Part shown: piece after piece, positions 10,044 to 54,911 of the stretch
Numbering within the stretch: position 1 is the first letter of the stretch
How the letters are laid out: every line of letters starts with the position of its first letter
Source of the DNA: Candidatus Woesearchaeota archaeon
GTDB taxonomy: Archaea; Nanobdellota; Nanobdellia; Pacearchaeales; GW2011-AR1
DNA: 64,000 bases
Assembly (NCBI GenBank): GCA_964613185.1
Contig: CAZTIP010000001.1
Location: 129,814-193,813, forward strand
Direction of reading: 5' to 3'
Translations under genes and position numbers: made by a program
Notes under the pieces: generated by a model
Databases searched by the model: none
What the model was told of the DNA's origin: nothing
Seen by the model: the letters and a program-made list of their open reading frames with translations, nothing else

Positions 10044-11324
10044 TCAATTTCTTTCGACTTTTCCGCTAATTCTTTCAGTATATTTCTTTGAACTTTCCTT
10101 CAATTTTTCCTCAGGGTTTTTTTGAACAGTTTTTTTTGATTTTTTATAGATGATGTATCCGACAATTCCAATAACTACAAAAATAAGAAATCCAATTAAT
10201 CCCCTTGAACTCTTTCCAGAAGTAGAAGAATCTGTAGAATCGCAAGTTCCAACACAACAAAGTTTTCCATCACCACTAAATAAAGGGTCGTTAGAACATT
10301 TTTCAGAAGCACCACAAGTAGTTCCTCCAAGTTCAGAGCAACTTTCTCCAGAAATTTTAACATCATCAAGGTTACCTCCTTCAGGCAAAACAAAAAGATT
10401 TAAGGGGATTCTAAATGAACTTTCAACTCCATTTTGAAAATAACTAACTCTTAAATCTCCTTTAAAATACCCTAATTCTTCTGGAGAAAAAGTAATTGTT
10501 AAGTTAACAGAATCTCTCGAAACAAGAGTTTTAAAATCTTCAATCTCGACAAATTCTAAGTCAGAAGAAATTGTAAAATTCTCCATATTTGAATCTCCAA
10601 AATTAAATAATTCAATAATTTGATCTGTATCTTCTCCCAAAATAAGATTAGAAAGAATTTTAGACGGATTAGTTTTCAAATTTAAATCTTCCGGAATATA
10701 AAAAGAATCATTAGCCGGAAAATAAATTACCGGAACAGAAAATTTCTTGTAAGAAGAAATATTAAGGTACGAAAAAACTTCTGAAGGACTAAATTCAATT
10801 TCCTTAAAGTCTCCTGCAGGAATTCCTAATTCCAAATCAGAATAACTAACATTTAAAGGCCTATCTCCAAGATTGGATAATTTTATAGAGGGTACTTCCA
10901 GAGAAAAGATATATCCTGGCTTTATAGACAAAACTTCGGAATAAGTTTCATTAGTATCTTCATCAAACAAAAGATTTCTAGAAATATTAATTTCTTCCAA
11001 AATTTCACCTGATTTCAAACCATCTGAATCCCTATAAAGAATTTCTGAAATTTCAAGAGTGAAATTTCCTTCACGAGAAGAATAGGCATAAAAATAATGA
11101 ACTCCCTCATAAAAGAGTAAATCAAATTCAAAAAAAACTTCTTTACGTCCCTCAAAAAACTTAACATCAGATTTAGAAATTTCCTGTAAAATTTCTCCAG
11201 AAGTTTCAATTGTAGCAAAAATTGTTTCTCCAACAGAGGTAGCGTTGTGTTGGAAATTAATCTCTACAGAGGCAGACGCTAAAGAAATAAAAAAAATCGA
11301 AATAAAAAGTATTGGCCACCTCAT
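10044..11324 (-). CDS. Secreted protein with juxtamembrane cysteine-knot module, TM anchor and Lys-rich cytoplasmic tail
   Basis: Signal MRWPILFISIFFISLASA. CSELGGTTCGASEKCSNDPLFSGDGKLCCVGTC lies just before LIGFLIFVVIGIVGYIIY-KKSKK. Confidence 0.6.
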   Translation of the reverse strand: MRWPILFISIFFISLASASVEINFQHNATSVGETIFATIETSGEILQEISKSDVKFFEGRKEVFFEFDLLFYEGVHYFYAYSSREGNFTLEISEILYRDSDGLKSGEILEEINISRNLLFDEDTNETYSEVLSIKPGYIFSLEVPSIKLSNLGDRPLNVSYSDLELGIPAGDFKEIEFSPSEVFSYLNISSYKKFSVPVIYFPANDSFYIPEDLNLKTNPSKILSNLILGEDTDQIIELFNFGDSNMENFTISSDLEFVEIEDFKTLVSRDSVNLTITFSPEELGYFKGDLRVSYFQNGVESSFRIPLNLFVLPEGGNLDDVKISGESCSELGGTTCGASEKCSNDPLFSGDGKLCCVGTCDSTDSSTSGKSSRGLIGFLIFVVIGIVGYIIYKKSKKTVQKNPEEKLKESSKKYTERISGKVERN

Positions 11325-13217: not shown

Positions 13218-14828
13218 TTAATAGTTAGATTTTATTTTCTTTTTTTCCGTTGACAGTTTTTCAAATTTTTTATTTCCAGAATTTTTAGCACGCATAGCCA
13301 TTTTAATTGTATAGTTAATTGGATTTTTTATTCCTTCGGCAGGAGGAGAGTAAATTCCAAATTCCTTGTAAATTGGTTTATCATAATTGGGGGGCATCCT
13401 TTTATTTTTAATATGCCAAAAAATTTGAGATTTAACATATCCAGTTTTTAAGGGGTGATAATTTTTAAGATTCCATTCTTCAATTTTTTCTTCTATAAAA
13501 TCTTGAGGAAATTCCAAGCTAGTAAAAAAAGATAGAATCAAAGAAAGTGCTCGTTTTCTCCCATCATCTTTTATCCCTTCAAGAAGTTTTTTTATAATTG
13601 GAGGATACATTTTTTCAGTAATTGTTAGGCCTTTCAAATCAAGAGAAGCCCCTTCATATTTTTTTGATTTTTCTTTAGGAACATTTTTTCGTCCCCAATC
13701 TAATGCTTCAAGAAGAAGTTCTTTCGCCTCTCCGGGAACACAATCTTTAATGAAGGGAAAAAAAGTTTTAATTTTAAACAAATCTGCATCTGCTGGTTTG
13801 AAATTTTCAATATCTTTCTTTTCAATAACGATTGATGAAAATGAAGTTTTTTCATGGAGTGAATAAGGTGCTCTAAATAAATGCCTGGAAGAAACCAAAA
13901 CAATATCTACCGAATCTTCAGTAGATTTAATTTTATCTTCAATTTTAAATTTAACTTCATCCTTTCTTTTAATGCCTCCGTAAGAACTCGTGCTAGCATC
14001 AATTTTTGCAGTATTAATTTTACACAAGTCGCAAAAATCAATTTTTCTTTCAGAGACTCTATCCATTTTTCCGTAACAATTAGAACAAACCATGGTCTTC
14101 CGATTAGATTTCATGCTCTCCAATTCCCCCTTACACCTAATCTTGTCTCTACAAATATATTTTCCAATAGTTTTTTTGTTAGTTGGATTATTGCATTGAG
14201 GGCAAAGACTTTCGGAAGATAATTCTCCAAGAGATTCCAATTCTTCACGATTACTTAATTTCAAAATTTCTTGATTCATAGGTTCACGAATTAAATGAAA
14301 TATATATCCTGCAATTAATCTCGGCCATTCAGGGAAATTATTTTTCGCTAATTCTCCAGAAACTTCTTCGGGAAATGCCTTAAATGGGACAATAATATGG
14401 AATCCCTTTCCTCCAGAAAATTTTATCCCATAATTTTTAACACCATGTCTTTCAAGTTCACCGATTAAAAGTCTAGCAGCAATCTTTGAATAATCAAAGT
14501 ATTTAGAATCAATATCTATTAAAAAATCCCATCCCATCCGAATTTCATTATATTGTTTAGGTGTCATATCAGTATTAATGTCTAAGGGATTTTCCCAAAT
14601 TTCTTCAGAACAATGGAATGAAGTAGCACCCTGCCTTGCAGAATTTACAATATCTGAAGAATAATCAAAACAATCCGGACGCTTAGCAAAAAACTCATTA
14701 TTAAAATTAGCAACAGTTTCACGATGTTTGCAAAATTCAAAAATCGCCTGTTGAACGTCTTTCCGAGCATAGTAAGAAAGTGCCAAAACTTGAACTTTGC
14801 TCAAAGATTTTTTTGGAGGATAAGCCAT
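13218..14828 (-). CDS. priS: Archaeo-eukaryotic DNA primase, single-chain PriS catalytic domain fused to a PriL-CTD-like helical domain
   Basis: AEP motifs FLIDIDSK (DxD), FSGGKGFHIIVP, SRHLFRAPYSLHEKT. Zn-ribbon insert CPQC...C..C / CSNC...CDLC. C-terminal YPPIIKKLLEGIKDDGRKRALSLILSFF resembles the PriL C-terminal domain motif. Confidence 0.8.
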   Translation of the reverse strand: MAYPPKKSLSKVQVLALSYYARKDVQQAIFEFCKHRETVANFNNEFFAKRPDCFDYSSDIVNSARQGATSFHCSEEIWENPLDINTDMTPKQYNEIRMGWDFLIDIDSKYFDYSKIAARLLIGELERHGVKNYGIKFSGGKGFHIIVPFKAFPEEVSGELAKNNFPEWPRLIAGYIFHLIREPMNQEILKLSNREELESLGELSSESLCPQCNNPTNKKTIGKYICRDKIRCKGELESMKSNRKTMVCSNCYGKMDRVSERKIDFCDLCKINTAKIDASTSSYGGIKRKDEVKFKIEDKIKSTEDSVDIVLVSSRHLFRAPYSLHEKTSFSSIVIEKKDIENFKPADADLFKIKTFFPFIKDCVPGEAKELLLEALDWGRKNVPKEKSKKYEGASLDLKGLTITEKMYPPIIKKLLEGIKDDGRKRALSLILSFFTSLEFPQDFIEEKIEEWNLKNYHPLKTGYVKSQIFWHIKNKRMPPNYDKPIYKEFGIYSPPAEGIKNPINYTIKMAMRAKNSGNKKFEKLSTEKKKIKSNY

Positions 14829-15635: not shown

Positions 15636-15665
15636 GAAATTTAAAAGATAATTTTTAAGATAGAA

Positions 15666-15673
15666 TTTATAAA
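15666..15673 (+). promoter_or_regulatory. TATA box TTTATAAA, 22 nt upstream of the ATG at 15695
   Basis: The promoter/leader (gaatttataaa...aaaataaatATG) is nearly the same as upstream of the paralog at 19753. Confidence 0.55.
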
Positions 15674-15694: not shown

Positions 15695-16435
15695 ATGAAA
15701 AAAAGAGGGCAGATAACAATTTTTATAATCGTAGGGATTGTGATTACTGTATCAATACTCTCAATAGTTTTTTTAAGAAGCGGAATAAGTTCACAAACTC
15801 CAAAAAATTTAGGACCACGGCAATTTATCCAAGGGTGTGTAGAAGAATTAGTGCAAGATTCTTTAGAAAAGATTCTTGCAGGCGGGGGAAAAATTTCGCC
15901 AGAATTAAAAATTCAATATATGGATGAAAATTACAATTACCTATGTTATCAGGAAGATCCTTATCTTGGATGTTATAATCTTTATTCAATGTTAGAAAAA
16001 AAAATAGAAGAAGAAATAGAAAATGACACAAAAGAACAAGTAGCCGAATGTTTTGGATTATTAGATGAAGATTTTTCAGAAAGAGGTTATTCTGTAAGTC
16101 AAGAGGATGAAGATTATTCAATTGATTTATTACCTGGAAAAATAAAAATAAATTTAAAAAAGAAAATAGATATTTCAAAAACAGGAGAGGCACAATCATT
16201 TGAAAACTTTGATAATCAAATTTTATCACCGCTTTATGAAATTGTAGAACTCACACGAAAAATAGTAAACGATGAATCAGCATATTGTAGCTTTGATTAT
16301 ATTTATCACATGTCTTTATATCCTCAAGAGAGTATAAGGAGAATAAGTTATGCAGGCAGTAAGCTATACTATATATTAGATAGAAATTCCGGAAAAGAAT
16401 TCAAATTCGCAATAAGAGGATGTGCACAAAATTAA
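15695..16435 (+). CDS. Class III signal peptide protein, 246 aa (cassette A partner of the cysteine-rich giant)
   Basis: MKKRG|QITIFIIVGIVITVSILSIVFL. Paralog of 19753..20496 (shared YLCY, FKFA-x-R). Confidence 0.6.
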   Translation: MKKRGQITIFIIVGIVITVSILSIVFLRSGISSQTPKNLGPRQFIQGCVEELVQDSLEKILAGGGKISPELKIQYMDENYNYLCYQEDPYLGCYNLYSMLEKKIEEEIENDTKEQVAECFGLLDEDFSERGYSVSQEDEDYSIDLLPGKIKINLKKKIDISKTGEAQSFENFDNQILSPLYEIVELTRKIVNDESAYCSFDYIYHMSLYPQESIRRISYAGSKLYYILDRNSGKEFKFAIRGCAQN

Positions 16436-19400
16436 AATGGAAAAAAAACTAGGAAAAAAATTTAACTTAATGTTCTTCGCTGTTTTGATATTCTCTTTTG
16501 GATATTTATTTTATGGAATCAGTTTAACCTCTGCAGAATCAACTGGATGCTGTGAGGTAGATTCAAACGGAGTTCAATGTTCTACGACTACAGAAAGCGA
16601 TTGTTCTTCCCAAAATTTTGCAGGAAACACACAATGTGAATCAACTTCATTTTGTCAAAGGGGATGTTGTTACGACGATTCAACAGGGGTTTATGACCAG
16701 AATGTTTTACAATCAAGTTGTAATTTGGATTGGAATAATGATCCAAATTGCAATTTACCAGGTGCAGCTGAAGGATGCTGTATTCTGGGGAGTTCAACAA
16801 TTTACGAAACTGGGGGCAGGTGTGCAATAGATTCTGTTCAAAGAGGTTACGAGGGGATTGACTGGAGATCTGATTTAAATGAGGCACAATGTGTGACATT
16901 TTCACAATCTCAAGATGAAGGTGCTTGTGTTTTAAATGGTGGAAATTGCAAATTCACAACGGGAGGAAATTGTGCAAGTTTGGGAGGGGATTTTTCACCA
17001 GATTATTTGTGCACTGCAGAAGAACTAGAAACTTCTTGTGAAAAAACAACAGAAACAACTTGCGTGGATGGAAAATACGGAGTTTATTTCACGGACACCT
17101 GCGGAAACATTGCAAATATTTATGATTCAAGTAAAACCTCTGATCAAACCTATTGGGAGACTGCAATCACTCAAGAAAATTCTTGCGGGGCAAACGATGA
17201 AGAAGGAAACGCAAACTCTCAAGATTGCGGGAACTGTAATTTACAGGCAGGAGGATTATGTAGTTCAGCAGAAGAAGATAATTTCAGTCCAGATGATGGA
17301 GACTATTATTGTAAAGAAGTTTCTTGCGAATTTGATGGAGATAATTATGAGAATGGAGAATCATGGTGTGTTTATGACGGAATAATTGGAAATAGCAATG
17401 ATGTTCCAGGTTCAAGACATTGGAGATATGTTTGTAATCAAGGAAAAGTTGAAATAGATCCCTGTGCAGATGCAAGAACTCAGATATGCTTACAATCAAA
17501 TACTGAAGAAAATGGGGGAACGATTTTCAGAAATGCGGCATGTTTAACAAATACAGGAGATAAGTGCTTAGAAATAAATTCCGAGACAAATAATCCAGAA
17601 AGATTAGAAGAATTGTGTAATGAAGAGGCAAATTGCAGAGTTAATTATGTAACAGTTACGGATGATTTTCAATTTAAAACCTGCATCCCAAGATTTCCTC
17701 AAGGATTTGACTTTAAAGATGAACAAGCTCAAGAAAATTCTGCAAACGCATGCAAACGTGCAAGTGCTACATGTGAAATTCAGCGAAGGAAGAATAATTT
17801 GGGAAGATGTAGAATAAGAAAAAATAGTGGTTGTTTAGATATAAAATTTGCAGAGGAGATGAATAATCTTTGCAGGGGTATGGGAGATTGTGGAGGGGAT
17901 ATAAATCTTAATAATGATTTTGTTTCAAATTATCAAACAAGACTTGTGCCAGGGTATGGAAGGACACCTCCAAGAATTAGTTCAGGGTATATCAATGATC
18001 TAGAAGATTTTGGGAGTCAAAATAATAATTTGGAAGGGATATTAATAATCTTAGAAAATTACCTAGATTATATGAGTATTTTAGGGGTTATAATTTATGA
18101 TCCAAGTTACAATGCAACAGCAGCAGAAAATACAAATCTTTTATTAATAGATCAATTATACAGTCAAGAAGGATACAATCATACTGTCTCAGTGGTTCCT
18201 CCAGAAATGGGATCTAGCGGACTTTTTAATTGGTTTGGAGGTTGCACCAATATGAAGTTAACCTATTCTTGTAAAGCATGGCAACCTCCGAGGGGTGGAG
18301 ATGCTTGCGATTTATGTAATGACGACCCATTAAAACCATGTTCAAAATACCGTTGTGAAAGTTACGGTGCAACTTGTGAATTAGCAAATATTGGGACTGG
18401 GGAAGAACTATGTTACGATGCAGGGGTTGATGACGCTAATCCTCCAATTCTAGCTCCTCAAATAGGTTACATCTCAGCAACAGAAAATTATTCAAATATC
18501 ACTGAAAACGGATTTAGCATAACTTCAACTGAAGGCGAGTGTTTAGAAGCTTATTCTCCAATCCATTTCGGAATAACTACTGACGAAGTATCTAATTGTA
18601 GATATGATTTTGAAATGCAAACTTTTGAAAATATGAGTTATGATATGGAAAACGGGCTAGCATCATATAACCACACTCCTCACCAAGTTCCATTCTATCT
18701 TCCAGATCCAAGTCACGGAGAAAGTCAGGGATTAAACTGGTCTGGAGAATTAGACCTATATGTGAAATGCCAAGATGGAAACGGAAATGAAAACCCTAAT
18801 TTCTACAAAGTTTCAATGTGTGTAAATCAAGGGCCGGATTTAACTCCTCCAATTATAATTGCAACATCTCCAGAAAATAATTCACGAATTAGTTTTGATT
18901 CCACTGCGGAAGAAGTAGAATTCATAACAACAGAACTTTCAACTTGTAAGTGGGCAGACAACGATACAGATTATTCATTAATGACAAATCAACTAGTTTG
19001 CGACGAAATCTTCAATGAACCTTCATCAACTCAAGGATATTCATGTAAAACAAATCTCACAATAACTGACACAAAAACCACAAAATACATTAGATGTGCA
19101 GACCAACCATGGTACGAAGAAACAAACGACTCATTAAGAAATTCAAACTCGCAAAGTTTCGTTTACACGTTAAATCAACCAAGCCAGAAAATTAAAATAG
19201 ATTCAATTTCGCCATCATCAGATTTCAAAACAGCAACAGATACAACCACCGTAAATTTAGAAGTTCAAACAATCGGCGGAGGAAACACACACACCTGTTC
19301 ATATTCATTCTCTGGATACGAAAGGATGGCTCCATTTTTTGAAACAGGTTTGGGGAATATTCACAACCAACCTTCACTAAATCTCTTCGCAAAAAAACAT

Positions 19401-19721
19401 GAAATTTTCATAGAATGCAAAGACGAAACAGGGGACACAGAACAACAAACCTCGACCTTTGAAATAATAAAAGATGAAAGCGATGCAAAGATAACAAGAA
19501 TCTGGCAAGAGGAGGGAGAAATAATTTTCCTAACTGAAGAATCTGCAGAATGCAAATTTTCTGAAGAAACTTGTAATTTTAATTGGGAAAACGGAACTTT
19601 AACAGGAACAGGGAGAACACATACAATAGATGCAATCAGAGGAAGAACTTACAGAATAAAATGTTTAGACGATTTTGGAAACAAACCAAGAGGGTGTTCA
19701 ACAATAATTCGCGCGTCATAG
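16422..19721 (+). CDS. Giant secreted cysteine-rich protein A (1099 aa), unknown family
   Basis: Signal/anchor LMFFAVLIFSFGYLFYGISLTSA. N-terminal ~500 aa Cys-rich lobe. Core CKAWQPPRGGDACDLCNDDPLKPCSKYRCESYGATCE. Four C-terminal two-Cys repeats. Alternative start at 16437 (MEKKLGKK) just after the upstream stop. Confidence 0.7.
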   Translation: MHKIKMEKKLGKKFNLMFFAVLIFSFGYLFYGISLTSAESTGCCEVDSNGVQCSTTTESDCSSQNFAGNTQCESTSFCQRGCCYDDSTGVYDQNVLQSSCNLDWNNDPNCNLPGAAEGCCILGSSTIYETGGRCAIDSVQRGYEGIDWRSDLNEAQCVTFSQSQDEGACVLNGGNCKFTTGGNCASLGGDFSPDYLCTAEELETSCEKTTETTCVDGKYGVYFTDTCGNIANIYDSSKTSDQTYWETAITQENSCGANDEEGNANSQDCGNCNLQAGGLCSSAEEDNFSPDDGDYYCKEVSCEFDGDNYENGESWCVYDGIIGNSNDVPGSRHWRYVCNQGKVEIDPCADARTQICLQSNTEENGGTIFRNAACLTNTGDKCLEINSETNNPERLEELCNEEANCRVNYVTVTDDFQFKTCIPRFPQGFDFKDEQAQENSANACKRASATCEIQRRKNNLGRCRIRKNSGCLDIKFAEEMNNLCRGMGDCGGDINLNNDFVSNYQTRLVPGYGRTPPRISSGYINDLEDFGSQNNNLEGILIILENYLDYMSILGVIIYDPSYNATAAENTNLLLIDQLYSQEGYNHTVSVVPPEMGSSGLFNWFGGCTNMKLTYSCKAWQPPRGGDACDLCNDDPLKPCSKYRCESYGATCELANIGTGEELCYDAGVDDANPPILAPQIGYISATENYSNITENGFSITSTEGECLEAYSPIHFGITTDEVSNCRYDFEMQTFENMSYDMENGLASYNHTPHQVPFYLPDPSHGESQGLNWSGELDLYVKCQDGNGNENPNFYKVSMCVNQGPDLTPPIIIATSPENNSRISFDSTAEEVEFITTELSTCKWADNDTDYSLMTNQLVCDEIFNEPSSTQGYSCKTNLTITDTKTTKYIRCADQPWYEETNDSLRNSNSQSFVYTLNQPSQKIKIDSISPSSDFKTATDTTTVNLEVQTIGGGNTHTCSYSFSGYERMAPFFETGLGNIHNQPSLNLFAKKHEIFIECKDETGDTEQQTSTFEIIKDESDAKITRIWQEEGEIIFLTEESAECKFSEETCNFNWENGTLTGTGRTHTIDAIRGRTYRIKCLDDFGNKPRGCSTIIRAS

Positions 19722-19723
19722 AA

Positions 19724-19731
19724 TTTATAAA
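19724..19731 (+). promoter_or_regulatory. TATA box TTTATAAA, 22 nt upstream of the ATG at 19753
   Basis: Recurrent octamer and spacing. Confidence 0.55.
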
Positions 19732-19752
19732 CTAAAATAACTTAAAATAAAT

Positions 19753-20496
19753 ATGAAAAAAAAGGGGCAAGTAACAATTTTTATAATCATAGGGATTGTA
19801 ATTGTAATTTCAATTCTTTCATTTTTCTTATGGTTAAAACCAACTTATTTTTCCGGAAAAAGTGCATCTCTAAATTTTGAAGGATGTATTCAAGATTCGG
19901 TGGAGCAAGGAATTCAACAATTAGGAAAAACTGCAGGTTCGATAAACCCGGAATTCACATTAACAACTCTCGGGGAAAAAATAACTTATCTTTGTTATAC
20001 AAACGAATTTTATAAAACTTGTACCGTTCAAAACCCTTTCATTAAACAACATTTTGAAGAAGAATTAACCAACTTAATAAAAGAAAAGGTAAATACTTGC
20101 TATTCAAATTCTATCGGAAATTTAAGGGCAGAAGGATATGAAGTAGCTTCTGGCGAAGTTTCATACGAAGTAAGTTTAGAGTTAGGAGTGGTAAGATTAA
20201 GTATTGACGCACCAACAAATGTAGGGGCATCAAAATTTACAAAATTCAATATAGAATTAAGTTCACCAATTTATGAGATGGTAATGTTAGCAACATCACT
20301 CATTCAAACAGAATCCAAATTTGGAGAGACAGATACAAGTTACCTGATGACATTATATCCCGATTATTTAATTGAAAAACAAGAACAAGGAGAAGGGACA
20401 AGAATTTATACAATAAACAGTAAGACTTTTGGAAACAAGTTCAAATTTGCAACCAGAAGTTTAGTATTCCCTCCAGGATTTATTCCAAACAATTAA
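19753..20496 (+). CDS. Class III signal peptide protein, 247 aa (paralog of 15695..16435)
   Basis: MKKKG|QVTIFIIIGIVIVISILSFFLW. Shared YLCY...C and FKFATR motifs. Confidence 0.6.
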   Translation: MKKKGQVTIFIIIGIVIVISILSFFLWLKPTYFSGKSASLNFEGCIQDSVEQGIQQLGKTAGSINPEFTLTTLGEKITYLCYTNEFYKTCTVQNPFIKQHFEEELTNLIKEKVNTCYSNSIGNLRAEGYEVASGEVSYEVSLELGVVRLSIDAPTNVGASKFTKFNIELSSPIYEMVMLATSLIQTESKFGETDTSYLMTLYPDYLIEKQEQGEGTRIYTINSKTFGNKFKFATRSLVFPPGFIPNN

Positions 20497-20500
20497 AGAT

Positions 20501-20707
20501 TTAATTTCTACAAGCACCCTTACAAACGCTACATCCGCCAGGACATCGGGAAGATGAACCAATTTCAACATTAATATTTCTATCCGAATAATCTACAGAA
20601 CTTTTTAAACTGTCTCCAGAGTAGGCAACATCATTTCCCGAAACCCCATAAGAATCATTTCTTGCACCCACAGCATACGAATTATCTTTCCCAACATTAT
20701 ATTCCAT
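20501..20707 (-). CDS. Small (68 aa) Asp/Ser/Gly-rich protein with C-terminal CPGGCSVCKGAC cysteine cluster
   Basis: ORF immediately downstream of giant B on the same strand. It has its own TTTATAAT box (20727-20734), about 20 nt upstream of the ATG. No signal peptide. Confidence 0.4.
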   Translation of the reverse strand: MEYNVGKDNSYAVGARNDSYGVSGNDVAYSGDSLKSSVDYSDRNINVEIGSSSRCPGGCSVCKGACRN

Positions 20708-20752
20708 AAAAAATATTAATTAATTCATTATAAAAACCCTCTGATTTAAATT

Positions 20753-23700
20753 CTAAAAGAAATTTCCAGTAGGTCTTACAACTAATGAACAGTCAGCTTC
20801 TTCATTTTTGAATTCATCACGACACTTGATGTAATAAGTATCGTCTTTATTCCAGTCAGTAACATGGGTTGTCGTATTCGCATAAGGCATTTGAGTCCCC
20901 TCATCAAATCCGAAATCACAATCATTCAAACTATATGAGCATTGACTATCCCTGACAGTAACTATTTTCAAGAAAGAATTCTCTTCGTAAACTCTTGCGA
21001 TAACCGGAGCATTTTCATCAATATCTAGATTAAAGTTAAGCGTATCTTCAACCAAATTTCCGCCCTCATCAATACATCGTATATTATATTCATGTTGTCC
21101 CGCTGCCAAGGATTGCATCTGAGTGCTTATTCCGTCAGCATTGTTTGTATCAAAGAAAGAAACATAATCTCCCTCAATACCATTATCCGAATAATAACAA
21201 ATAGAACGCCCACCATCACAACCGAATAGAGTTTCTGCACGAAGTTCAACAGGCATTGGACTAACTGCACCGAAAACAGTACTATTGGGTTTCAAGTTTT
21301 TCATTTTCAACCCAGTACTTCCATGAAGGCTAAATTCAAAACTCTGTGACATTTTATTCCTATCAATATCTGCAGCATTTGGTTGATCCTTACATCTTAC
21401 ATAAAATTGAGTATCCGCTCTAGAAATTCCTTCAAAGTCAGCAGCACATGTCCAAAGATTCTGTGCATTAATTTGGTAGGGTTGACTAGCACATTGCATT
21501 TCATTCTGCATAGAATCATAGTCATTATCCTGAGAGCTCCACCTACATTGTGCAGGTTCGTTAACATAAAATTCTACATTAGCAACATCCTGATTTTCAG
21601 CAACACAAGCCCCATTATTAATTGAAGTAGCTTCTATCGTCGGAGAAGTAGTGTCTGGAGAAGGGTCAATACAGAAACTAACTTCATATTCCGCAGTATT
21701 AGAATTTCCAGTTTTATCCATACATCTAATAAAATAATTCATCTCATTTCCATTCTGTAATTCAAATGATGAATTTTCAAGCAAACCAACACTAGGTAAG
21801 ACAAAACTTTCAGAGTGATTATAAAGGTATAAATTATCTCCTCCAACAAAATTCCTCATCAAATCAAATTCAGTAGTATGATTAAAATCAATCCTACATT
21901 GAGATAACTCATTAGTATTAATCCCAAATTCTATAGGGGTAAAAGCTTTCAAACAGCCATCTGAACTAGATGAATCAATAATTTCAAATCCGGGACTTGG
22001 GGGGGAGTTGACTACATTAGTATATTCAAGTCCTGAAGTTAAAGCACTTTCAGAAGGACTAATTACGGGAGGATTCACATCTCGAGGATTAACATTTACA
22101 CAACTTTCTTGTTCAGTTCCTTGATTAACTATCTCGCAAGTTTGTCCAAGAGATTTACATCTATATTCTGAACAAGGTAATCCATCATCTTCATTACATG
22201 CTTCACAATCATCTCCTCCACGAGGTGCTTGCCAAGGTTTACATTCAAAAGAAACAACTTCGACCTTAGTATCCTTATAGAATACAAGGAAATAAACTAC
22301 AAGTCCAATTCCTCCTGAAAAATACCATTTAGCAAAATTTGTCCCTGTAGTAACAGCCCATGCATTAGTAAGCTGGTAAGTAAATGCAGATGCTGCAATA
22401 GATGTAGCAATGGCATTACTCTCTTCGTCATCCATTCCAAACAAACTCCCTAGCAATAGACCGACACCATAAGCAGTCGCAGTCCACCAAAATGCAGTCC
22501 ACCCAATAGAAGGTAAGGCGGCTGCACCAGCACCAGCTGCAGCACCAGATGCAGCACCAGCTGCAGCACCAGCTGCACCACCAAATGCGGCACCAGCTGC
22601 AGCACCAGCTGCAGTACCACTAGCAATATAAGCTGAAGAAACAAAATAATGCGCGATATAAGTTGCAGTTGCAATTCCTGCGGAAGTCATAAGGAATCGT
22701 TCAAAGTTATTGGCCACTGAAGAATAAGCAAAAGGATCAACAGAATAACCAGAATAACCGTTCCCAATTAAATTTTTCTGGTTAGGCGTGAATCTTTTTC
22801 TTTCTCCATTTATTTTCCAAGAATAACCATCATCTGTAAATTCTTCTTGATAATTAACATAACCTCCACAATCTCCTGCGGCAGAACAAGCACGATTAAC
22901 ACTCAATGCCCACTCATCACTTAAACATTCTCCATTTTCCGCGACATCCCAACTATCTAATAACCCCTTTTCATAAAGAACATCACATCTTGCACTAACT
23001 GCTCCACAAACATTTTTCGCACCACCATCTTCCCAAAAATCTAAACCTGGAGAGTTATTAGGGACACAAACACCAGATTCCATTCGCCTACCATTAGACA
23101 TCAAACCTTCAACAGAAGAAACCCATTTACAATCTCTTATATCATTATTTTCACAATCACTTTTTCCAAGTTGTAGTGTACAATCTTGCCAACGATTTAC
23201 CCTACACGCCGCAGTCCCAAAATCATTTCCAGAAGCAGTTTCAATTTTTCCTTCAATACAAATAGAATTTCTATAATCTGCACATGCCTCAACAGTAACA
23301 TCTCCATCAACACAAATTTCCCTGAAATATCTTGAACCTGCAGGGTCTAAACCTTGTCCAGAAAGTGGGTCATTCACACACCAAGATTCTCCATTTAATC
23401 GACTATCTCCATTTCTATCTATACATTCAGTTTTTTGACAATAATAATCACTATCTGCAGGGCTTCCAAGTCCTAAAACTCCATCCCATTCTGCACAACG
23501 AGTTCCTTCAAGATAATCACAATTTCCACAATCAGTATTCGCATCTGAGTTCGGATCACAAACAGCATCTGCTTCGAGAACTCTCCCATTATTCCAACTT
23601 TTAGACTTATCTGAAGAATAAGCATTCTCCAAATTTCCACAGGAATCTGTCCAATAAACATCCTCTCCATTACAAGTGGTGGAAGTTTGACGAGCACAGG

Positions 23701-24400
23701 CAGTTCCTAATTCTTCGGCAGAGCATAACATATCCTTATAGAATGTTTTTCCAGAAGAAGTTTCGTTAATTCCTTCAACATTATCACTTGCACCACAATC
23801 TGAACGAGTTGTAAATTCACAAATTCTCTCAAAATCCTTTTCAAAGACACAAGCACCCTTATCTTGAGATTGAGCAGCAGCAATGCATGCAACTTCAGAA
23901 TTTATATCAGTCCGATAATTATTTTCCATGCCAAAAAAAGAAGATAATTTTTTACATCTAACTAATGGGACAAAAGATGCTTGGTCTCCAATAATGCAAC
24001 ATCCAAGCTGACATTGAGGAACTTCATTTGCAGAACGGGCATCCCAAAGACCTCCATTATCTGAACAAACACTTTGAGGGGTATTCTCCATACAAATACC
24101 TTCTCCAGAATCATAACAAGTTCCAAGTTTACAATAAGAAGTAGTTTCACAAGAAGTTGGAGAGCTTCGAGAACCGGGGGCACATTGAGATTCATCAGTA
24201 TTAACACAAGAAGCACCATCAACAGTTTTTTCACAACAAGTGCTTGGGTCAGAACTCGCAGTTTCAGCAGAAACAGGCGAAGCAGAATCAAGGATAAAAG
24301 CAAAAGCAAAAAGGGAACTAATCATCAAAACCAGCTGAAAACTAGCAACAGCTTTTTTATTCAAATCAAAACCTCTTCTTTTCATAAATATTTCAGCCAT
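20753..24400 (-). CDS. Giant cysteine-rich protein B (1215 aa), paralog of A with inserted hydrophobic Gly/Ala-rich segment
   Basis: Collinear with A. Core [37 protein letters not shown]. Signal [23 protein letters not shown]. The true start is probably the second Met (24385, MKRRGFDL), which lies 22 nt from the TATA box at 24407-24414. Confidence 0.7.
22514..22621 (-). repeat. Imperfect GCAGCACCAGCT-type repeat tract encoding a (G/A)n stretch inside giant B
   Basis: Plus strand reads ...gctgcaccagcaccagctgcagcaccagatgcagcaccagctgcagcaccagctgcacc... It translates (minus strand) to [34 protein letters not shown]. Confidence 0.8.
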
Positions 24401-24406
24401 CTCTTA

Positions 24407-24414
24407 TTTATAAA
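24407..24414 (-). promoter_or_regulatory. TATA box TTTATAAA for giant B (22 nt from the ATG at 24385)
   Basis: Palindromic octamer. Spacing matches the window-wide rule only for the second Met. Confidence 0.5.
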
Positions 24415-24444
24415 TTCTTTCATAATAAAAACCGCTTCTAAACT

Positions 24445-24452
24445 TTTATAAA
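24445..24452 (+). promoter_or_regulatory. TATA box TTTATAAA for the pilin-like operon (24 nt upstream of the ATG at 24476)
   Basis: Second TATA box in the 75-bp divergent intergenic region. Confidence 0.5.
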
Positions 24453-24475
24453 TCTCTTATATTATATAATCAAGA

Positions 24476-24973
24476 ATGAAAAACTTAAAAAAAAGAGGAC
24501 AACAAACAATGGGATTACCTTTCGGGATGATTTTTTCAATTATTTTAATAGTGGTATTTGTAGTCATCGCATTCATAGCCGTCGGAAGTTTTCTAGACAT
24601 TGGAAAAAGTGCAGGAGTGGGATTATTTTACACAGAGCTTCAAGAAGCAATCGATAATTCTTGGAGAGGGCAATCAAGCGAAACAACTTTCAAAATAAAT
24701 TTACCGTCAGAAATAAAAACAATCTGCTTTTCAAATTTATCTAAAACAATAACTGGAGAAACAGAATATTATAACCAAATAAAAAATTATGAAGTTTATG
24801 AAGCAAACACATTTTTAATTCCACCAGAAAACGCCCAACAAATGCAATGGAAATTAATCAATCATTTAGATATAGAAAAAATAACTGAAAATAAAAATCC
24901 TTATTGCGTAAGTACAAGTCAAAAATTAAAACTCAAAAAAGGTTTCTATGATAAATTGGTCCTAATAGAATGA
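24476..24973 (+). CDS. Class III signal peptide protein (pilin-like), operon gene 1
   Basis: MKNLKKRG|QQTMGLPFGMIFSIILIVVFVVIAFIAV. Stop overlaps the next start (ATGA). Confidence 0.6.
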   Translation: MKNLKKRGQQTMGLPFGMIFSIILIVVFVVIAFIAVGSFLDIGKSAGVGLFYTELQEAIDNSWRGQSSETTFKINLPSEIKTICFSNLSKTITGETEYYNQIKNYEVYEANTFLIPPENAQQMQWKLINHLDIEKITENKNPYCVSTSQKLKLKKGFYDKLVLIE

Positions 24974-25923
24974 TGAAAAAAAAAGCACAGTTTAGCTTCG
25001 CATGGATTTTCGCAATAATTGTAGGGGGTGCAATTTTATTTTTAGCAATTTACGGAGCATTAAAAACTGCAGACACTCAAAGATTTCAAGAAGATACAGA
25101 AATCGCAAAATCAATTTCAATTTTAACAGATCCACTTCAGGCAGGATTCGCAGAAAGTTCATTCGGAAAAATATCTTTCAAACAAGAAACAAGAATAAAT
25201 AATATTTGTTTTGACGGAGAATTTGGAAAAAACGATTTATCAGTTTCAGTTCGTTCAAGTGTAGGAAAACCTTGGAACAATCCAGGGGGGGAAACCTCAA
25301 TAAGAAATAAATACATTTTCTCAGACGAAAAAAACACAGGGAAAGAATACTACCTATTCTCAAAATCTTTTGAATTTCCTTACGAAGTTTCAGATTTACT
25401 TTTTATAACTCCAAAAAATTATTGTTTCCTAACTCCTCCTGAAAAAGTAATTGAAGATTTAGAAGGATTAAACATTCCTAATATTCAATTAGTAGATTCT
25501 CAAGAAGATTGCACTTTAACAGAACCGGTAAAAGTTTGTTTTGGAAATGGAAATGATTGTGATATCACTGTTTCAGGAACTTGCTCAAATTGTGATTCAG
25601 ATTATGATGAAGGAAACGTAGCAAAAGACGGGGTGGGGAAAAAATTCGTAGGAAATTTAATGTATGCAGCAATTTTCTCAGAAAAAAATATTTATGAATG
25701 CAATGTTAAAAGATTATATTATCGGTCGGAAAAAATAGCGGAAGGATTAATTGAAAAAGAAGATTTAATGGATGCAAGAGGCTGTGATTCAAATCTAAAA
25801 AACGATTTACTGCAATGGATCAGCTTATTGGAAAATGAAACTTCGGGAGGCCTCCCAAATTTGAATTCTGCTGTAGAAAATCTAAACAGAAAAAATAGTC
25901 AGGAGCTTTGCAATTTATGGTAA
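24970..25923 (+). CDS. Class III signal peptide protein (pilin-like, 317 aa, Cys-rich ectodomain), operon gene 2
   Basis: MMKKKA|QFSFAWIFAIIVGGAILFLAIYG. Contains CTLTEPVKVCFGNGNDCDITVSGTCSNCDSDY. Confidence 0.6.
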   Translation: MMKKKAQFSFAWIFAIIVGGAILFLAIYGALKTADTQRFQEDTEIAKSISILTDPLQAGFAESSFGKISFKQETRINNICFDGEFGKNDLSVSVRSSVGKPWNNPGGETSIRNKYIFSDEKNTGKEYYLFSKSFEFPYEVSDLLFITPKNYCFLTPPEKVIEDLEGLNIPNIQLVDSQEDCTLTEPVKVCFGNGNDCDITVSGTCSNCDSDYDEGNVAKDGVGKKFVGNLMYAAIFSEKNIYECNVKRLYYRSEKIAEGLIEKEDLMDARGCDSNLKNDLLQWISLLENETSGGLPNLNSAVENLNRKNSQELCNLW

Positions 25924-26441
25924 AAACAAAAAATCAAAACAAAAAAGCACAAATGAAAATTCAACAAATGGCTTTTATGATTGTTGCAGTTTTCTTTTTC
26001 TTTATATTAGTGGGATTGTTTTTTATAAAAGTTCAATTCAGTGGAATACAAAAAAGTGCAGAAGAACTAGAAAAAAAACAGGCAGTCTCGGCACTAGGAG
26101 TGATTTCAAATATGCAAGAATTAAATTGTAATTCAAGAGAAAGTTTATGTTTGGACAAAGACAAATTAAAGATAATGTCTGGAGAATTAAAAGAATCTTA
26201 CAAGCTGTTTTGGCCAATAGCTTCAATAAAAGTTTATCTTTTAGATACAACGTCAACAAACATAATCCAGTGTCCTGCGCTAAACTGCAATTATTTTGAA
26301 ATTTTCGATAACGAACAAACAAATTCAGAGGAATATTCAACTTATGTTTCAGTATGTGAAAAAGTAAGAGAATCAGGATATGTATACAATAATTGCGAAA
26401 TAGCAAAATTAGTAGTTGGGAGAAAGATAAATGAAAAATAA
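25908..26441 (+). CDS. Class III signal peptide protein (pilin-like), operon gene 3
   Basis: ...NQNKKA|QMKIQQMAFMIVAVFFFFILVGLFF. Overlaps the upstream gene by 16 nt. The exact start is uncertain. Confidence 0.55.
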   Translation: MQFMVKTKNQNKKAQMKIQQMAFMIVAVFFFFILVGLFFIKVQFSGIQKSAEELEKKQAVSALGVISNMQELNCNSRESLCLDKDKLKIMSGELKESYKLFWPIASIKVYLLDTTSTNIIQCPALNCNYFEIFDNEQTNSEEYSTYVSVCEKVRESGYVYNNCEIAKLVVGRKINEK

Positions 26442-26922
26442 AGCACAACAAGAAATTGTTGGTTTCGTTTTAATTGTAGCTATAGTGATGGTTGCATTGA
26501 TGGTTTTTTTAGTAATCTCACTAAGAACTCAGCCAACTGAAAGCGAAAGTATCGAGGTAGAAAATCTATTAAATTCAATAATGAAAAAAACAACCGGATG
26601 TGCAATTTCATTCGAACCACAATACGATGATTTTGAAGATTTATTCAAAAGTTGTCACAACGAAGATACTTGCGACAATATTCAAGAAGATTCATGCGAA
26701 TATCTCAAAGAAAGTTTAAACGAAACAATTAAAGGATTATTAAAAACAGAGGCAACAACAAATTCATTTAGATTAAACTTCATAAATCGTGAAGAGGACG
26801 GGGAAGAAGAAATTTTTGAGATTTCAAATGGGAATTGCACTGGTCAAATTTCAGCAGCACAAAAAACTCTACTCTCAGGTTCAGATAAATTAGTAATAAG
26901 AATGAGAGTTTGCAATAATTAA
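26431..26922 (+). CDS. Class III signal peptide protein (pilin-like), operon gene 4
   Basis: MKNKA|QQEIVGFVLIVAIVMVALMVFLV. Overlaps the upstream gene by 11 nt. Confidence 0.6.
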   Translation: MKNKAQQEIVGFVLIVAIVMVALMVFLVISLRTQPTESESIEVENLLNSIMKKTTGCAISFEPQYDDFEDLFKSCHNEDTCDNIQEDSCEYLKESLNETIKGLLKTEATTNSFRLNFINREEDGEEEIFEISNGNCTGQISAAQKTLLSGSDKLVIRMRVCNN

Positions 26923-26926
26923 CAAG

Positions 26927-27283
26927 TTAAATATTCACAATAATTTCGATTTTATCTACAATTAAAACAGGTCTCAAAGATTCTCTTCTACCTATTTTTT
27001 CAGAATGAAATTCAATAAAACCAAATCTTTCAAGAACCTTAATATCTTCCCTAACCGATTTAAAATCTCTTCTTAAAATTTTGGCAAGTCCATAAATTGA
27101 TTTGGGATTTTCAGATTTAAGAACATGCAGAATTCGAGATTTTTCATTACTCAGGAGATTTCTCAAGAGTTTAACATCCGAAAAATCATGAGGTTTATTT
27201 CCTCTCATTAGATTCGAAACAAAACCCTCTGGATTCACATTCATTTCAACATATCTAATTTTTGTTCTTTTTTTCTTCACCAT
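26927..27283 (-). CDS. Winged helix-turn-helix transcriptional regulator (ArsR/MarR-like)
   Basis: RILHVLKSENPKSIYGLAKILRRDFKSVREDIKVLERFGFIEF is an HTH plus wing. Sits between the pilin-like operon and the S-layer gene. Confidence 0.6.
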   Translation of the reverse strand: MVKKKRTKIRYVEMNVNPEGFVSNLMRGNKPHDFSDVKLLRNLLSNEKSRILHVLKSENPKSIYGLAKILRRDFKSVREDIKVLERFGFIEFHSEKIGRRESLRPVLIVDKIEIIVNI

Positions 27284-27706: not shown

Positions 27707-30277
27707 ATGAAAAAAATATTTAGAAAAGCTATAACAGTATTAGGAACAGGTTTATTAATTGGTTCCACAGCAGGCATCGCAGCCGCTGCGGCATATCCTA
27801 GTCCTTTTACAAGTAACACAGCTGTTGTTTATGGTTATGATGCTGATGCAAGTGATAGTATCGCTGCAGGTAACATTGTATCTAACTTAGATGCAAATGC
27901 TGCTGGAAGTAGTACAACTACAATTACCGGAGAATCAGCAGATTTAGCTAGTGGTTCAGATCTTCTTTATTTGAATGATGAATTCAGCGAAAACATTCAA
28001 ACTTTAACAAAGAGTGACTTACCTACAGTTTTAGCAGATGAAGTTTTTACAGATAACGATGGAACTAATTACGATTTTGAACAAAAATTAGTAATTGGAA
28101 CCAGTACAAATAATGGTTTTGAATTCGGAAATTCTGACAATGATTTGGATGATCCTGCTTTAATGCTTAAATTATCTACAACTGCAACTGCAACTAATGC
28201 TATTTATGATTTAACTGCAACTTTCAATAGTGCAGTAAATTTTACTGCAAGTGATTCAGAAGGGGAAGATATAACTATCTTCGGAAGAACTTATACTGTT
28301 GCAACTGCTACAGATGATAATACCTTAGTATTGCTAGGAGGTTCTGGAAGTTCCAACATAAATGTTGGAGAAACCAAAAATATCGCTGTAGGAAGTGAAT
28401 CTTACACTGTTACTCTTGATGGTCTTAGTTCTGCTTCAACTACCCAAGCTAGTGTAACTGTTAACGGAGAAACTAAAACATTTACTGAAGGTCAGACTAA
28501 AACTCTCGCTGGATTAGATGTTTATGTTAAAACTGTTTTCAGAACTGGAGATGATGGTTCAGGATATGCCGAGGTTCAACTTGGTGCAGATAAATTAACT
28601 CTAGAGTCTGGAAATGCAGTTCAAACTGGTTCAGATACTGATGATATTGATGGAACTTTAGTTACATTCACACCATCATCAGCAACCGGCGTTCAAGCAT
28701 TAACAGAAATTAAAATTACTGTTGCTGCTGAAGACAACGATGCAAATCATTTATTAAATGGTGAATCATTTGTTGATCCAGTTTTCGGAACAGTTGTTGT
28801 AAACTTTGACAGTGTTCAAAATGGACCTACCTTTTCTGGAGAAAAAGATACTGGTAGAACAGATCTTGAAATCCAAAAAGGAGGAAATAGAGAGCTTCAT
28901 TTATCTTTAACAGATAATGCTGGAGACAGTGCTACTCTTCCATTTACATATAATACTGGTTTAAGTGATGATAATAGTAATAATATTTCCGTAGTAGAGG
29001 GAGAATCAATTTCGGATGATGGGATGTTTATCCTAAATTCAGGAAATAATCAACACTTTATGCAGATTACTAAGTTAAATTTGGATGATGGAGCAAATAG
29101 TGATGTTGCTATGAAGGATTTAATTTCCGGAGAAACTTACACATTTGATGATCATAATTTTGCTAGTGGATATAGTGCGACTATTTCAGGTCAAACTTAC
29201 ACCATTACAAATGATAGTGCTACAACAGTAACTGTTGTTTCTAGTGATTTCACCACAAGTGCAGTTACAGATGGAACAGTAGTTAGTGTGTATCCTTATC
29301 TAGAACTTGTTTCTGGAGAAGATACAAGAGTTGCGATGACTGATTATGTATTGGTTTTAGATGATATTCAAACCGGTTCTACTGGAGTGAATGTAACCTT
29401 AGATCTTCCAACAGGAAGTATTGACATAACTCAAAATGCAACAAATGATAGTCTTCAACTTGGAAGTACAGGTGTAGTAATAACTGAAAACAAGACTGTT
29501 AAGGTAGGATCTGCATATTACGACTTTGTAGTATCTGATGGTACTGGATTAGGTAATGTGGATGTCCGTATTGGTATGGATGATGGTCAAAGTAGTGCAG
29601 GAAATGCAGCTGCAGGAACTATTACAACTGCAGGTATTCTTTTTGTAGAAGATGAAGATAAATCTGAATCAACTACAACTACAAAGAATGCCTTCGTAGT
29701 AACTACAACTGACACAGGATCTTATAGTACAGTTTCTGCTCCTGTTTTCACAGGAACTTCAGACACAGAAACTTGGGACAATACAGACTTTACAGGTTGG
29801 TTGACTAACTATGGTACTTATGTATGGAGGGACACTGGAGATTCTAATCAAAACTTTGTAGGTTTATCCTATGGAAACGAGATTATGTCTGCAGATGTAA
29901 CTTTTGCGGAAGGCGAAGTTTCACCCACAGGTTCAGCAGGTATATTATCTGTAATGGATACTGACGTTGCTAGTGTTGCTGGAATGAACTTAGTTGTTGT
30001 TGGTGGTTCTGCCATCAACTCTGTTGCTGCTGAATTACTTGGTGGTGCATACGGTGGAGATATGTTTACTAGTATGACTGGTGTTTCTGCAGGAGGATTC
30101 TTAATTGAATCTTTCGCAAGAAGCGGTAAAACTGCACTTTTAGTTGCAGGATACAACGCTGCAGATACAACAAAAGCTACCACATATTTAACTAACAATA
30201 TGGATAAAGTTGATACAACTGTTGGTAACAAATATACAGGTAACACTGCTACATCAGCTACATTAACTGTTGATTAA
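27707..30277 (+). CDS. S-layer (surface layer) protein candidate, 856 aa, Cys-free
   Basis: Signal MKKIFRKAITVLGTGLLIGSTAGIAAAAA. Thr/Ser/Asp/Gly-rich with no cysteine. N-terminal YPSPF..AVVYG..ASDSIAAGNI and C-terminal NLVVVGGSAINSVAAELLGG...LLVAGYNAADT resemble methanococcal-type S-layer protein termini. Strong SD, long leader and strong terminator. Composition differs from the neighbours. Confidence 0.65.
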   Translation: MKKIFRKAITVLGTGLLIGSTAGIAAAAAYPSPFTSNTAVVYGYDADASDSIAAGNIVSNLDANAAGSSTTTITGESADLASGSDLLYLNDEFSENIQTLTKSDLPTVLADEVFTDNDGTNYDFEQKLVIGTSTNNGFEFGNSDNDLDDPALMLKLSTTATATNAIYDLTATFNSAVNFTASDSEGEDITIFGRTYTVATATDDNTLVLLGGSGSSNINVGETKNIAVGSESYTVTLDGLSSASTTQASVTVNGETKTFTEGQTKTLAGLDVYVKTVFRTGDDGSGYAEVQLGADKLTLESGNAVQTGSDTDDIDGTLVTFTPSSATGVQALTEIKITVAAEDNDANHLLNGESFVDPVFGTVVVNFDSVQNGPTFSGEKDTGRTDLEIQKGGNRELHLSLTDNAGDSATLPFTYNTGLSDDNSNNISVVEGESISDDGMFILNSGNNQHFMQITKLNLDDGANSDVAMKDLISGETYTFDDHNFASGYSATISGQTYTITNDSATTVTVVSSDFTTSAVTDGTVVSVYPYLELVSGEDTRVAMTDYVLVLDDIQTGSTGVNVTLDLPTGSIDITQNATNDSLQLGSTGVVITENKTVKVGSAYYDFVVSDGTGLGNVDVRIGMDDGQSSAGNAAAGTITTAGILFVEDEDKSESTTTTKNAFVVTTTDTGSYSTVSAPVFTGTSDTETWDNTDFTGWLTNYGTYVWRDTGDSNQNFVGLSYGNEIMSADVTFAEGEVSPTGSAGILSVMDTDVASVAGMNLVVVGGSAINSVAAELLGGAYGGDMFTSMTGVSAGGFLIESFARSGKTALLVAGYNAADTTKATTYLTNNMDKVDTTVGNKYTGNTATSATLTVD

Positions 30278-54610: not shown

Positions 54611-54646
54611 TTCATTTACTCCCCTCGTGAGAGGGGAATGTCAAGT

Positions 54647-54676
54647 GGATTCTTATACTGTTCTCATCGAATATGA
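54647..54676 (-). other. 5' arm of the 23S processing stem
   Basis: See the partner at 51674-51706. Confidence 0.7.
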
Positions 54677-54840
54677 AGTCTCGGCTAGAGACTATTCTCA
54701 AACTCCCCAAACCAGCATAGCTGAATTCGGTTCATCGCCAGTTTTTTAACGAGCTACTCTGCTCCTGTTTTTTGAGATGCTTTTCTGCATCTTCATTCCT
54801 CAAAGGAGAGGGTGAATGTGATTTTCTAATTTAAATTTTA

Positions 54841-54911
54841 TGGACCCGCCGCGAATCGAACGCGGGTATCCTCGGTGCAAGCGAGGTATTCTGCCACTAG
54901 ACTACGGGCCC
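54841..54911 (-). tRNA. tRNA-Ala (UGC) in the 16S-23S spacer
   Basis: The reverse complement is GGGCCCG-TA-GTCT...CCTCG-CTTGCAC-CGAGG...CCGCG-TTCGATT-CGCGG-CGGGTCC-A. Confidence 0.9.

Follow-up and report, generated by a model that had tools for sequence, protein, structure and literature searches.

An eight-gene module of Pacearchaeota and Woesearchaeota that couples type-IV-pilin-like proteins to cysteine-rich giant proteins: a candidate cell-contact machinery

The priming complex of the bacterial type IVa pilus (T4aP) and type II secretion system (T2SS) combines a set of small prepilin-type proteins (FimU/PilVWX or GspHIJK) with PilY1, and its major subunit and motor are encoded elsewhere. 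Among archaea, type-IV-filament loci with several Cys-containing minor pilins and two large adhesin-like proteins have already been described (PMC4858521; 10.64898/2026.04.22.720090). A 64-kb window (the whole stretch of DNA analysed, from contig CAZTIP010000001.1 of a Candidatus Woesearchaeota archaeon) was found to contain a cluster whose core is eight genes, encoding six pilin-like proteins (S1, S2 and op1–op4) and two Cys-rich giant proteins (G1 and G2, or giants A and B). Judged by gene content and order, the cluster is a predicted cell-envelope module of Pacearchaeota and Woesearchaeota, lineage-wide and chromosomally fixed, and is best filed as an archaeal type-IV-pilin-like cluster with large adhesins whose families have no detectable relatives among described ones. 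It would form a surface complex anchored by the pilin-like proteins and displaying the giants as adhesins, a reading to which we give an even chance, and it is, though unproven, a strong candidate for the cell-contact machinery of these archaea. Among uncultivated archaea, Pacearchaeota and Woesearchaeota rank with the most abundant; their metabolism is minimal and their lifestyle apparently host-attached, yet no attachment machinery has been identified for them. Size-fractionation data indicate that Pacearchaeota are apparently strongly host-attached (10.1101/2020.05.14.094862). The module offers a concrete target of eight genes, widespread, fixed in order, wholly unannotated and bearing hallmarks of surface machinery, and through it the design principle of minor pilins plus a large adhesin would extend to DPANN archaea. 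Castelle et al. 2021 reported modules specific to Pacearchaeota that consist of membrane or extracellular families with no function predicted; in the literature, neither a description of this cluster nor one of type-IV-filament machinery in Pacearchaeota was found.

With the bacterial priming complexes the module shares four prepilin-type proteins (op1–op4) in a fixed, coupled order beside a Sec-secreted non-pilin of ~1,100–1,200 aa, one oversized member (op2, 317 aa; compare GspK and PilX) and the absence of a major subunit and motor from the gene set itself. The PilY1-type feature of a large Sec-secreted protein beside a minor-pilin-like gene set is present in the window and in its relatives (S-G-S-G-op1-4). 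Unlike the bacterial complexes, the module has two extra pilin-like adaptors (S), one per giant, archaeal-type N-termini with Gln at +1 and no conserved Glu5, and no known secretin or motor context; no sequence or fold homology to them was detected, and the giants carry immunoglobulin-like (Ig) arrays and a Cys-rich domain where PilY1 carries a beta-propeller. The clade-1 or 'system 1' (Epd-type) pili of Methanococci and some DPANN archaea (PMC4858521; 10.64898/2026.04.22.720090) are similar in having multiple pilin-like proteins with Gln at +1, the signature of EppA substrates, and two large proteins, there putative tip adhesins, and an Epd-type system has been reported in DPANN; processing of Methanococcus pilins by EppA requires the +1 Gln (PMC4390842). 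However, in the Epd-type system the large proteins contain DUF2341 and the pilins fall into known arCOG or Pfam families, none of which was detected in the module, and Epd loci include an ATPase, split platform genes and EppA, whereas the module has none of these within 10 kb. Subsystem 4G loci of Thermoproteales likewise encode small Cys-conserved pilin-like proteins and two large secreted Ig-rich proteins, and the adhesin/S-layer-like arCOG05616 of 4G, as do the giants, gives Foldseek matches to the GhpA grappling hook. The 4G loci belong to another lineage, no sequence similarity to them was found, they adjoin their own ATPase, platform and MinD genes, and they lack three features specific to the present module, a Cys-rich N-domain of ~500 aa, a Gly/Ala-rich middle and S adaptors. 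In the Sulfolobus bindosome (Bas), prepilin-type N-termini mount large extracellular proteins at the surface with no obvious fibre, which offers a model for a pseudopilus or non-filament reading; there, however, the class III signal is on the large sugar-binding proteins themselves and a basEF motor is present, whereas the giants of the present module bear Sec-type signals and a linked motor is missing.

The region had been singled out in a first-pass annotation made from the sequence, and the nine open reading frames (ORFs) listed in it were all recovered at their coordinates. S1 (15695..16435, + strand, 246 aa) begins with MKKRG↓Q (the arrow marks the predicted cleavage site), followed by a transmembrane (TM) helix and an alpha/beta ectodomain with conserved Cys; its paralog S2 (19753..20496, +, 247 aa; 31% identity over 243 aa, E = 2e-30, which supports the paralogy first proposed) begins with MKKKG↓Q and is here parted from its own giant by an inversion. 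The four op genes follow one another on the + strand and encode op1 (24476..24973, 165 aa, KRG↓QQ), op2 (24970..25923, 317 aa, KKA↓QF, 10 Cys), op3 (25917..26441, ~174 aa, KKA↓QMKIQQ) and op4 (26431..26922, 163 aa, NKA↓QQE), each with a TM helix after the motif. Every junction between them overlaps (24973/24970, 25923/25917, 26441/26431), in agreement with the translational coupling claimed earlier. All six small proteins thus show the prepilin-type N-terminus that had been noticed, [KR][GA]Q followed by a hydrophobic helix, and have the short basic leader, [KR][GA] at -2/-1, permitted +1 residue and ~20 hydrophobic residues of class III signals.

For comparison, 83 related loci were fetched, their ORFs were called and a hidden Markov model (HMM) was built for each window protein and iterated. 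The N-terminal motif was kept in 139/163 homologs of S, 59/67 of op1, 28/34 of op2, 21/31 of op3 and 22/25 of op4, with Q in most cases at +1; these motif-bearing homologs come from five families in up to 83 loci and have a mutual identity of just 25–60%. Conservation of class-III-like N-termini in all six families, over dozens of divergent genomes, argues against ordinary signal anchors, one of the alternatives that the first-pass annotation had set against its own proposal. Within the module, op1 and op2 are homologous (hhalign 99.7%), and the S family is weakly related to op4 (hhalign probability 86%). Pilin_N aligned to op4 only (E = 0.036–0.056, ~15 bits, below the cutoff of 25.2), and the sub-threshold profile matches to the PDB (op1 to the pilin PilE1, E = 0.022; op4 to an archaeal flagellin, E = 0.72) were confined to the N-terminal helix, as was that to Pilin_N; weak as they are, these matches may be taken as consistent with a pilin reading. 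A profile search with op2 retrieved 323 homologs, all 'hypothetical' and all from close relatives. An AlphaFold2 (AF2) model of S (predicted local distance difference test score, pLDDT, 90; predicted template modelling score, pTM, 0.79) consists of a TM helix (residues 3–29), a flexible low-confidence linker and a head of three helix-plus-sheet units.

Among the other ORFs of the window a comparable N-terminus was seen in one, 2460-3008 (+), which lies outside the cluster and encodes a 182-aa protein without family that begins with MKKKG↓AIELSIGTIVIIVL; its N-terminus would suit either an ordinary or a major pilin. Further upstream, in a region that extends beyond the left edge of the window (locus L084, 3725-11596), are genes for four Thr/Asn-rich secreted proteins (1551, 309, 195 and 531 aa), all without a family match.

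The giants G1 (16437..19721, +, 1094 aa) and G2 (20753..24385, -, ~1210 aa from Met6) had been described as collinear secreted paralogs, and both points hold: their N-halves are 33% identical (E = 9e-71) and their C-halves 34% (E = 6e-80), and Sec-type signals were read in both. Each contains ~64 Cys, and the alignment of the giant family has 92 invariant columns, mostly Cys. In the AF2 model of G1 (pLDDT 80), a Cys-rich mixed alpha/beta N-half (~35-530) is followed by a disordered linker (546-600), a Cys-knot and approximately four beta-sandwich domains. The latter are consecutive, occupy the C-terminal ~490 residues of the giants and gave Foldseek matches with probability 1.0 and E values of 1e-11 to 1e-8; all matches (PDB, BFVD) were to generic tandem Ig or fibronectin type III (FN3) arrays, namely cadherins, contactins, the GhpA grappling hook, RTX adhesins and phage tail proteins. 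In the models, C-terminal Ig-like arrays of this kind appear typical of adhesins, and the likeness to tandem Ig/FN3-array adhesins (cadherins, RTX adhesins, Aureispira GhpA) is one at fold level; unlike those adhesins, the giants align with low TM-scores (0.1-0.3) and sequence identities of 7-13%, and their Cys-rich N-half has no counterpart in Foldseek, where its matches were swamped by Ig arrays. Ig-domain profiles of Pfam remained below threshold (Big_13, E = 0.028; Big_3_3, E = 0.11). G2 shares the architecture of G1 with the addition of an uncharged, hydrophobic, Ala/Gly-rich middle of ~150 aa (about residues 570-715), which is absent from G1, is flanked by two Cys-rich ectodomains and is highly variable in length among relatives.

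Three other assignments of the giants were tried and rejected. An S-layer role was rejected since neither giant matched the PACE-CTERM profile (NCBIfam) and a sortase-linked S-layer candidate is located elsewhere in the window; homology with PilY1 was rejected since the AF2 model has Ig-like sandwiches and no beta-propeller, and DUF2341 is lacking. Many relatives of the giants have a conserved N-terminal helix, KK-x-ASF[E/Q]-x8-FAF, but only 24/79 have G or A at -1, so that this helix is not a consistent prepilin site; class III signals on the giants were rejected on this ground and because in the window both N-termini look like ordinary Sec signals. About half of the relatives have the position-2 giant as two genes, one for the N-half (~590 aa) and one for the C-half (~700 aa). 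In such cases (for example L012 5553-9445, L018 14274-19297, L028 14915-23533), 0–5 unrelated genes are inserted between the halves, and a plain signal peptide is found on the N-half gene and the KK-x-ASF[E/Q]...FAF helix on the C-half gene.

That none of the nine proteins belongs to a nameable family agrees with the searches made here, which yielded no significant match to a Pfam, NCBIfam, PHROG or PDB family. Profile searches, and structure searches with the models of S and G1, checks proposed in the first-pass annotation, returned no confident match to a characterised family, and profile-versus-PDB searches with all six families gave nothing significant. Matches to PHROGs were weak (E ~1e-3 to 1e-2), and those of G2 fall on its Gly/Ala-rich, low-complexity middle. 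The giant family itself is large: a word-indexed search returned 571 matches, every one 'hypothetical', an exhaustive HMMER search returned 3,912 clusters (50% identity) at E <= 1e-3 and 1,972 at E <= 1e-30, and at least 591 confirmed matches were obtained in species-representative genomes, nearly all labelled Pacearchaeota, Woesearchaeota or Nanoarchaeota.

A strongly conserved gene order was found among the related loci, where a lack of conserved neighbourhood would have spoken against a functional module. Canonically, p426 (-), cys606 (-) and primase (-) come first, followed by PCNA (+), then by S, G, S, G and op1–op4 (all +), and finally by a gene for an HVO_A0114-like protein (-) and one for a large secreted protein (+). 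S is present in 81/83 loci in about two copies each; a giant follows directly after the S gene in 117/147 cases, in 94 of these 117 overlapping it or at most 30 nt away, and each S gene is accordingly predicted to be translationally coupled to a giant. By clustering, G1 is the ortholog of the position-1 giant and G2 that of the position-2 giant. The two cassettes in opposite orientation and the operon divergent from G2, as first described, are a true account of the window, but they reflect a lineage-specific inversion: from the relatives, in which the genes are co-directional, the ancestral layout is reconstructed as a single array, S-G-S-G-op1-4, and the reversed orientation of G2 as a local inversion that retained its own promoter copy. 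The inversion is common to the window and its nearest relative, L086 (73% identical), and a functionally essential role of the divergent arrangement was therefore rejected. Median identity to the window proteins was 53-55% for op1/op2, 46% and 40% for the other op proteins, 57.5% for PCNA and ~32-35% for S and G. The contrast between op1 and op2, nearly as well conserved as PCNA, and the more variable S and G fits a conserved base with more variable distal parts.

The promoter regions suggest joint expression. A BRE/TATA-like (B recognition element/TATA box) 12-mer, AGAATTTATAAA, occurs exactly three times in the 64 kb, each time 21 nt before a start codon: at 15662..15673 (+) before the ATG of S1, where it would serve the S1–G1 unit, at 19720..19731 (+) before the ATG of S2, and at 24407..24418 (-) before Met6 of G2. 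A TATA-like box read from the sequence, TTTATAAA (24445..24452, +), lies 23 nt before the ATG of op1. The leader DNA of S1 and S2, previously called near-identical, matches at 27/35 nt before the start codons. The identity of the first three elements, and the similar spacing of all four boxes to the start codons, imply co-expression as leaderless units; the module is read as four co-regulated, probably leaderless transcription units. Two starts had to be revised. The 1099 aa from 16422 given for giant A become 1094 aa from the most likely start, ATG 16437, as in the database copy P0001, and the 1215 aa from 24400 given for giant B become 1210 aa from Met6 (24385), the most likely start by promoter spacing. 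As a result of the latter, the divergent spacer is 90 bp long and not 75 bp; the two TATA boxes that had been placed in it are there (24407..24418, -; 24445..24452, +).

Taken together, these features would be accommodated by the following mechanism. A prepilin-peptidase-like enzyme, its gene lying elsewhere, would trim the six N-termini at [KR][GA]↓Q. The op proteins, all four well conserved, would assemble into a minor-pilin-like initiation or tip bundle, and S1 and S2 would act as pilin-like adaptors, each holding one giant. A short pseudopilus or a pilus tip would then carry the faster-evolving Ig-array giants on the cell surface, where these would bind a partner cell or substrate; in its logic the module would correspond, among archaea, to the four minor pilins plus PilY1 of bacteria.

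Several results weigh against this reading. As the first-pass annotation had stated, the window encodes no ATPase of the PilB/FlaI type, no PilC/FlaJ platform protein and no prepilin peptidase, and the 10 kb flanking it on each side likewise yielded no FlaI/PilB ATPase, FlaJ/PilC platform protein or A24 peptidase. A motif scan (Walker-A plus PDxxxGExR) within 10 kb of the 83 related loci detected no type-IV-filament machinery. One paper lists type IV pilus components as missing from DPANN genomes; a 2026 census has type-IV-filament systems 1 and 4A in some DPANN and Nanoarchaeota (10.64898/2026.04.22.720090). The module encodes no major pilin, and none of the six small proteins had a significant match to a pilin-family profile (Pfam Pilin_N, PF07790; Class_IIIsignal, PF04021; NCBIfam pilin models). 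In the AF2 model, the TM helix of S is joined to the head through the low-confidence linker and is not a continuous pilin alpha-1 helix, and the S ectodomain had zero Foldseek matches in the PDB at E <= 0.001. With no machinery found near the loci, no detectable pilin fold in S and no significant pilin family, the 'pilus-like fibre' and 'host attachment' of the first-pass annotation remain inference. Moreover, invariance of all Cys and a fixed locus beside PCNA and primase are unusual for an adhesin and suggest a housekeeping role rather than host-specific adhesion.

The main rival, less probable than the surface-display reading and nevertheless to be taken seriously, is accordingly a housekeeping envelope scaffold with neither filament nor host specificity, in which the small proteins would be membrane anchors or dedicated partners (possibly chaperones) holding the giants in the pseudo-periplasm or wall. 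Such a scaffold would account for the near-universal presence of the module, its fixed position and invariant Cys, the S-layer and sortase genes nearby, the lack of a filament motor near any of the 83 loci, the linker-tethered S fold unlike that of known pilins, the paper that has DPANN without type IV pilus components and the Gly/Ala-rich segment of G2, which is probably membrane-embedded. Yet for a plain anchor there would be no need to keep Gln invariant behind [KR][GA] in each of six families, the fixed order of four small pilin-like proteins and large non-pilin proteins mirrors known pilus tip modules, and S and G evolve clearly faster than op1–op4 and PCNA. The same Gly/Ala-rich segment is the starting point for a membrane-active contact device, in which the glycine-zipper-like middle of G2 would enter the partner membrane or form a channel in the cell's own, giving a pore or cytoplasmic bridge for metabolite uptake, and the pilin-like proteins would deliver or position G2. 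Its uncharged ~150 aa between two Cys-rich ectodomains, the NCBI name 'glycine zipper family protein' of one homolog, weak PHROG matches to the hydrophobic parts of a tail-associated lysin (E = 1.4e-3) and of an internal virion protein (E = 4.3e-3), and the cytoplasmic bridges and nanotubes seen between DPANN and hosts in other lineages would fit. A membrane-active role of the segment is possible and weakly supported, and the device as a whole is quite improbable: the segment is absent from G1 and very variable in length in relatives, the PHROG matches are of low complexity, no fold or sequence links it to any known pore former or fusogen, and in the sole system resolved by cryo-electron tomography the nanotubes are derived from the host and not from the DPANN cell. 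Only slightly less doubtful is a wider reading of the module as a self-contained, lineage-defining contact organelle and not just another type IV pilus, in which the six pilin-like proteins would build a short stalk, possibly without canonical motor, that presents both giants, and the glycine-zipper segment of G2 would engage or breach the partner membrane; if true, it would be the long-sought attachment and uptake device of ultra-reduced archaea.

Two further explanations have less in their favour. A DNA- or substrate-uptake pseudopilus of the Com/T2SS type, with the op proteins as minor pseudopilins and the giants capturing extracellular polymers for an organism dependent on scavenged nucleotides, would suit the number of op genes, ComGD–GG and GspH–K being likewise four-member pilin-like sets, as well as the RuBisCO III and AMP-phosphorylase nucleotide-salvage genes in the genome and the adjoining PCNA and primase. 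It is very unlikely, as there is no ComEC/ComEA-like gene, nuclease or ATPase nearby, the giants have no nucleic-acid-binding or enzyme domain, and adjacency to replication genes may be merely inherited synteny. An integrated virus or mobile element, in which the giants would be virion or entry proteins, could be read from the Foldseek matches to phage tail and Ig-domain proteins and from the weak PHROG matches; but the former are generic Ig arrays with low TM-scores and the latter low-complexity matches at E ~1e-3, IMG/VR contains no relatives, the GC content of the module resembles that of the remainder of the window, and the chromosomal position beside PCNA and primase is constant in dozens of divergent genomes. 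A viral or proviral origin can be regarded as effectively refuted by the missing IMG/VR relatives, the low complexity of the PHROG matches and the fixed synteny.

The ninth ORF (20501..20707, -, 68 aa), which had been noted as a Cys-tailed gene just downstream of giant B, is present there but does not belong to the core: it was seen only in the window, in L086 (14081-14287) and in L005 (~14090-14290), and as it is confined to these three close relatives it was rejected as a core component and is regarded as accessory and lineage-specific. Its C-terminal RCPGGCSVCKGACR is invariant, its N-terminal part is diverged and Gly/Ser/Tyr-rich, and it has no signal peptide; to judge from this composition, the product might be a small metal-binding or precursor-like peptide.

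The surroundings of the module are rich in envelope genes, with a pacearchaeosortase, a PACE-CTERM S-layer candidate, Cys-rich anchored proteins upstream and a Thr/Ser-rich secreted protein downstream. The pacearchaeosortase (32145-32696, -; NF033505, 139.6 bits, cutoff 80) adjoins the gene of the putative S-layer protein with PACE-CTERM (32721-34412, -; NF033506, 266 bits; also CARDB), which is probably a sortase-anchored wall protein, so that the sortase-anchored S-layer candidate of the window is neither giant. The presence of both genes identifies the host as a Pacearchaeote; together with the archaeal rRNA operon and form III RuBisCO, they make more specific the DPANN-like archaeon that had been suggested. 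Convergent to op4 and at the same place in 18 related loci is a gene for an HVO_A0114-family winged-helix protein (26927..27283, -; PF25212, E = 9.6e-17), by its family and position a candidate regulator of the module. Downstream of it, 27707-30277 (+) encodes a secreted protein of 856 aa that is Thr/Ser/Gly-rich, has zero Cys and no family match, and keeps its position downstream of the module yet is scarcely alignable across genomes, which suggests a fast-evolving surface protein. Upstream, 10044-11324 (-) and 11356-13176 (-) encode a paralogous secreted pair (hhalign probability 100%), both anchored by a TM segment at the C-terminus, of which the 606-aa member is Cys-rich (28 Cys); homologs were seen in 35 related loci, mostly upstream of primase.

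The GC content of the 64-kb window is ~31% and its gene content is archaeal, including an rRNA operon, form III RuBisCO, PCNA and primase. Form III RuBisCO and an AMP/pyrimidine-nucleoside phosphorylase-like protein (Glycos_trans_3N, Glycos_transf_3, PYNP_C) are encoded at 4451-5851 (+) and 47390-48868 (-), which fits the nucleotide-salvage metabolism described for Pacearchaeota. The rRNA operon (51788-56565, -) is complete, with the 16S gene at 55125-56565, the 23S gene at 51788-54600 and a spacer tRNA at 54841-54911, and accounts for a local rise in GC content to ~45%. In the 10 kb past each window edge, solely ribosomal, proteasome and exosome genes were found.

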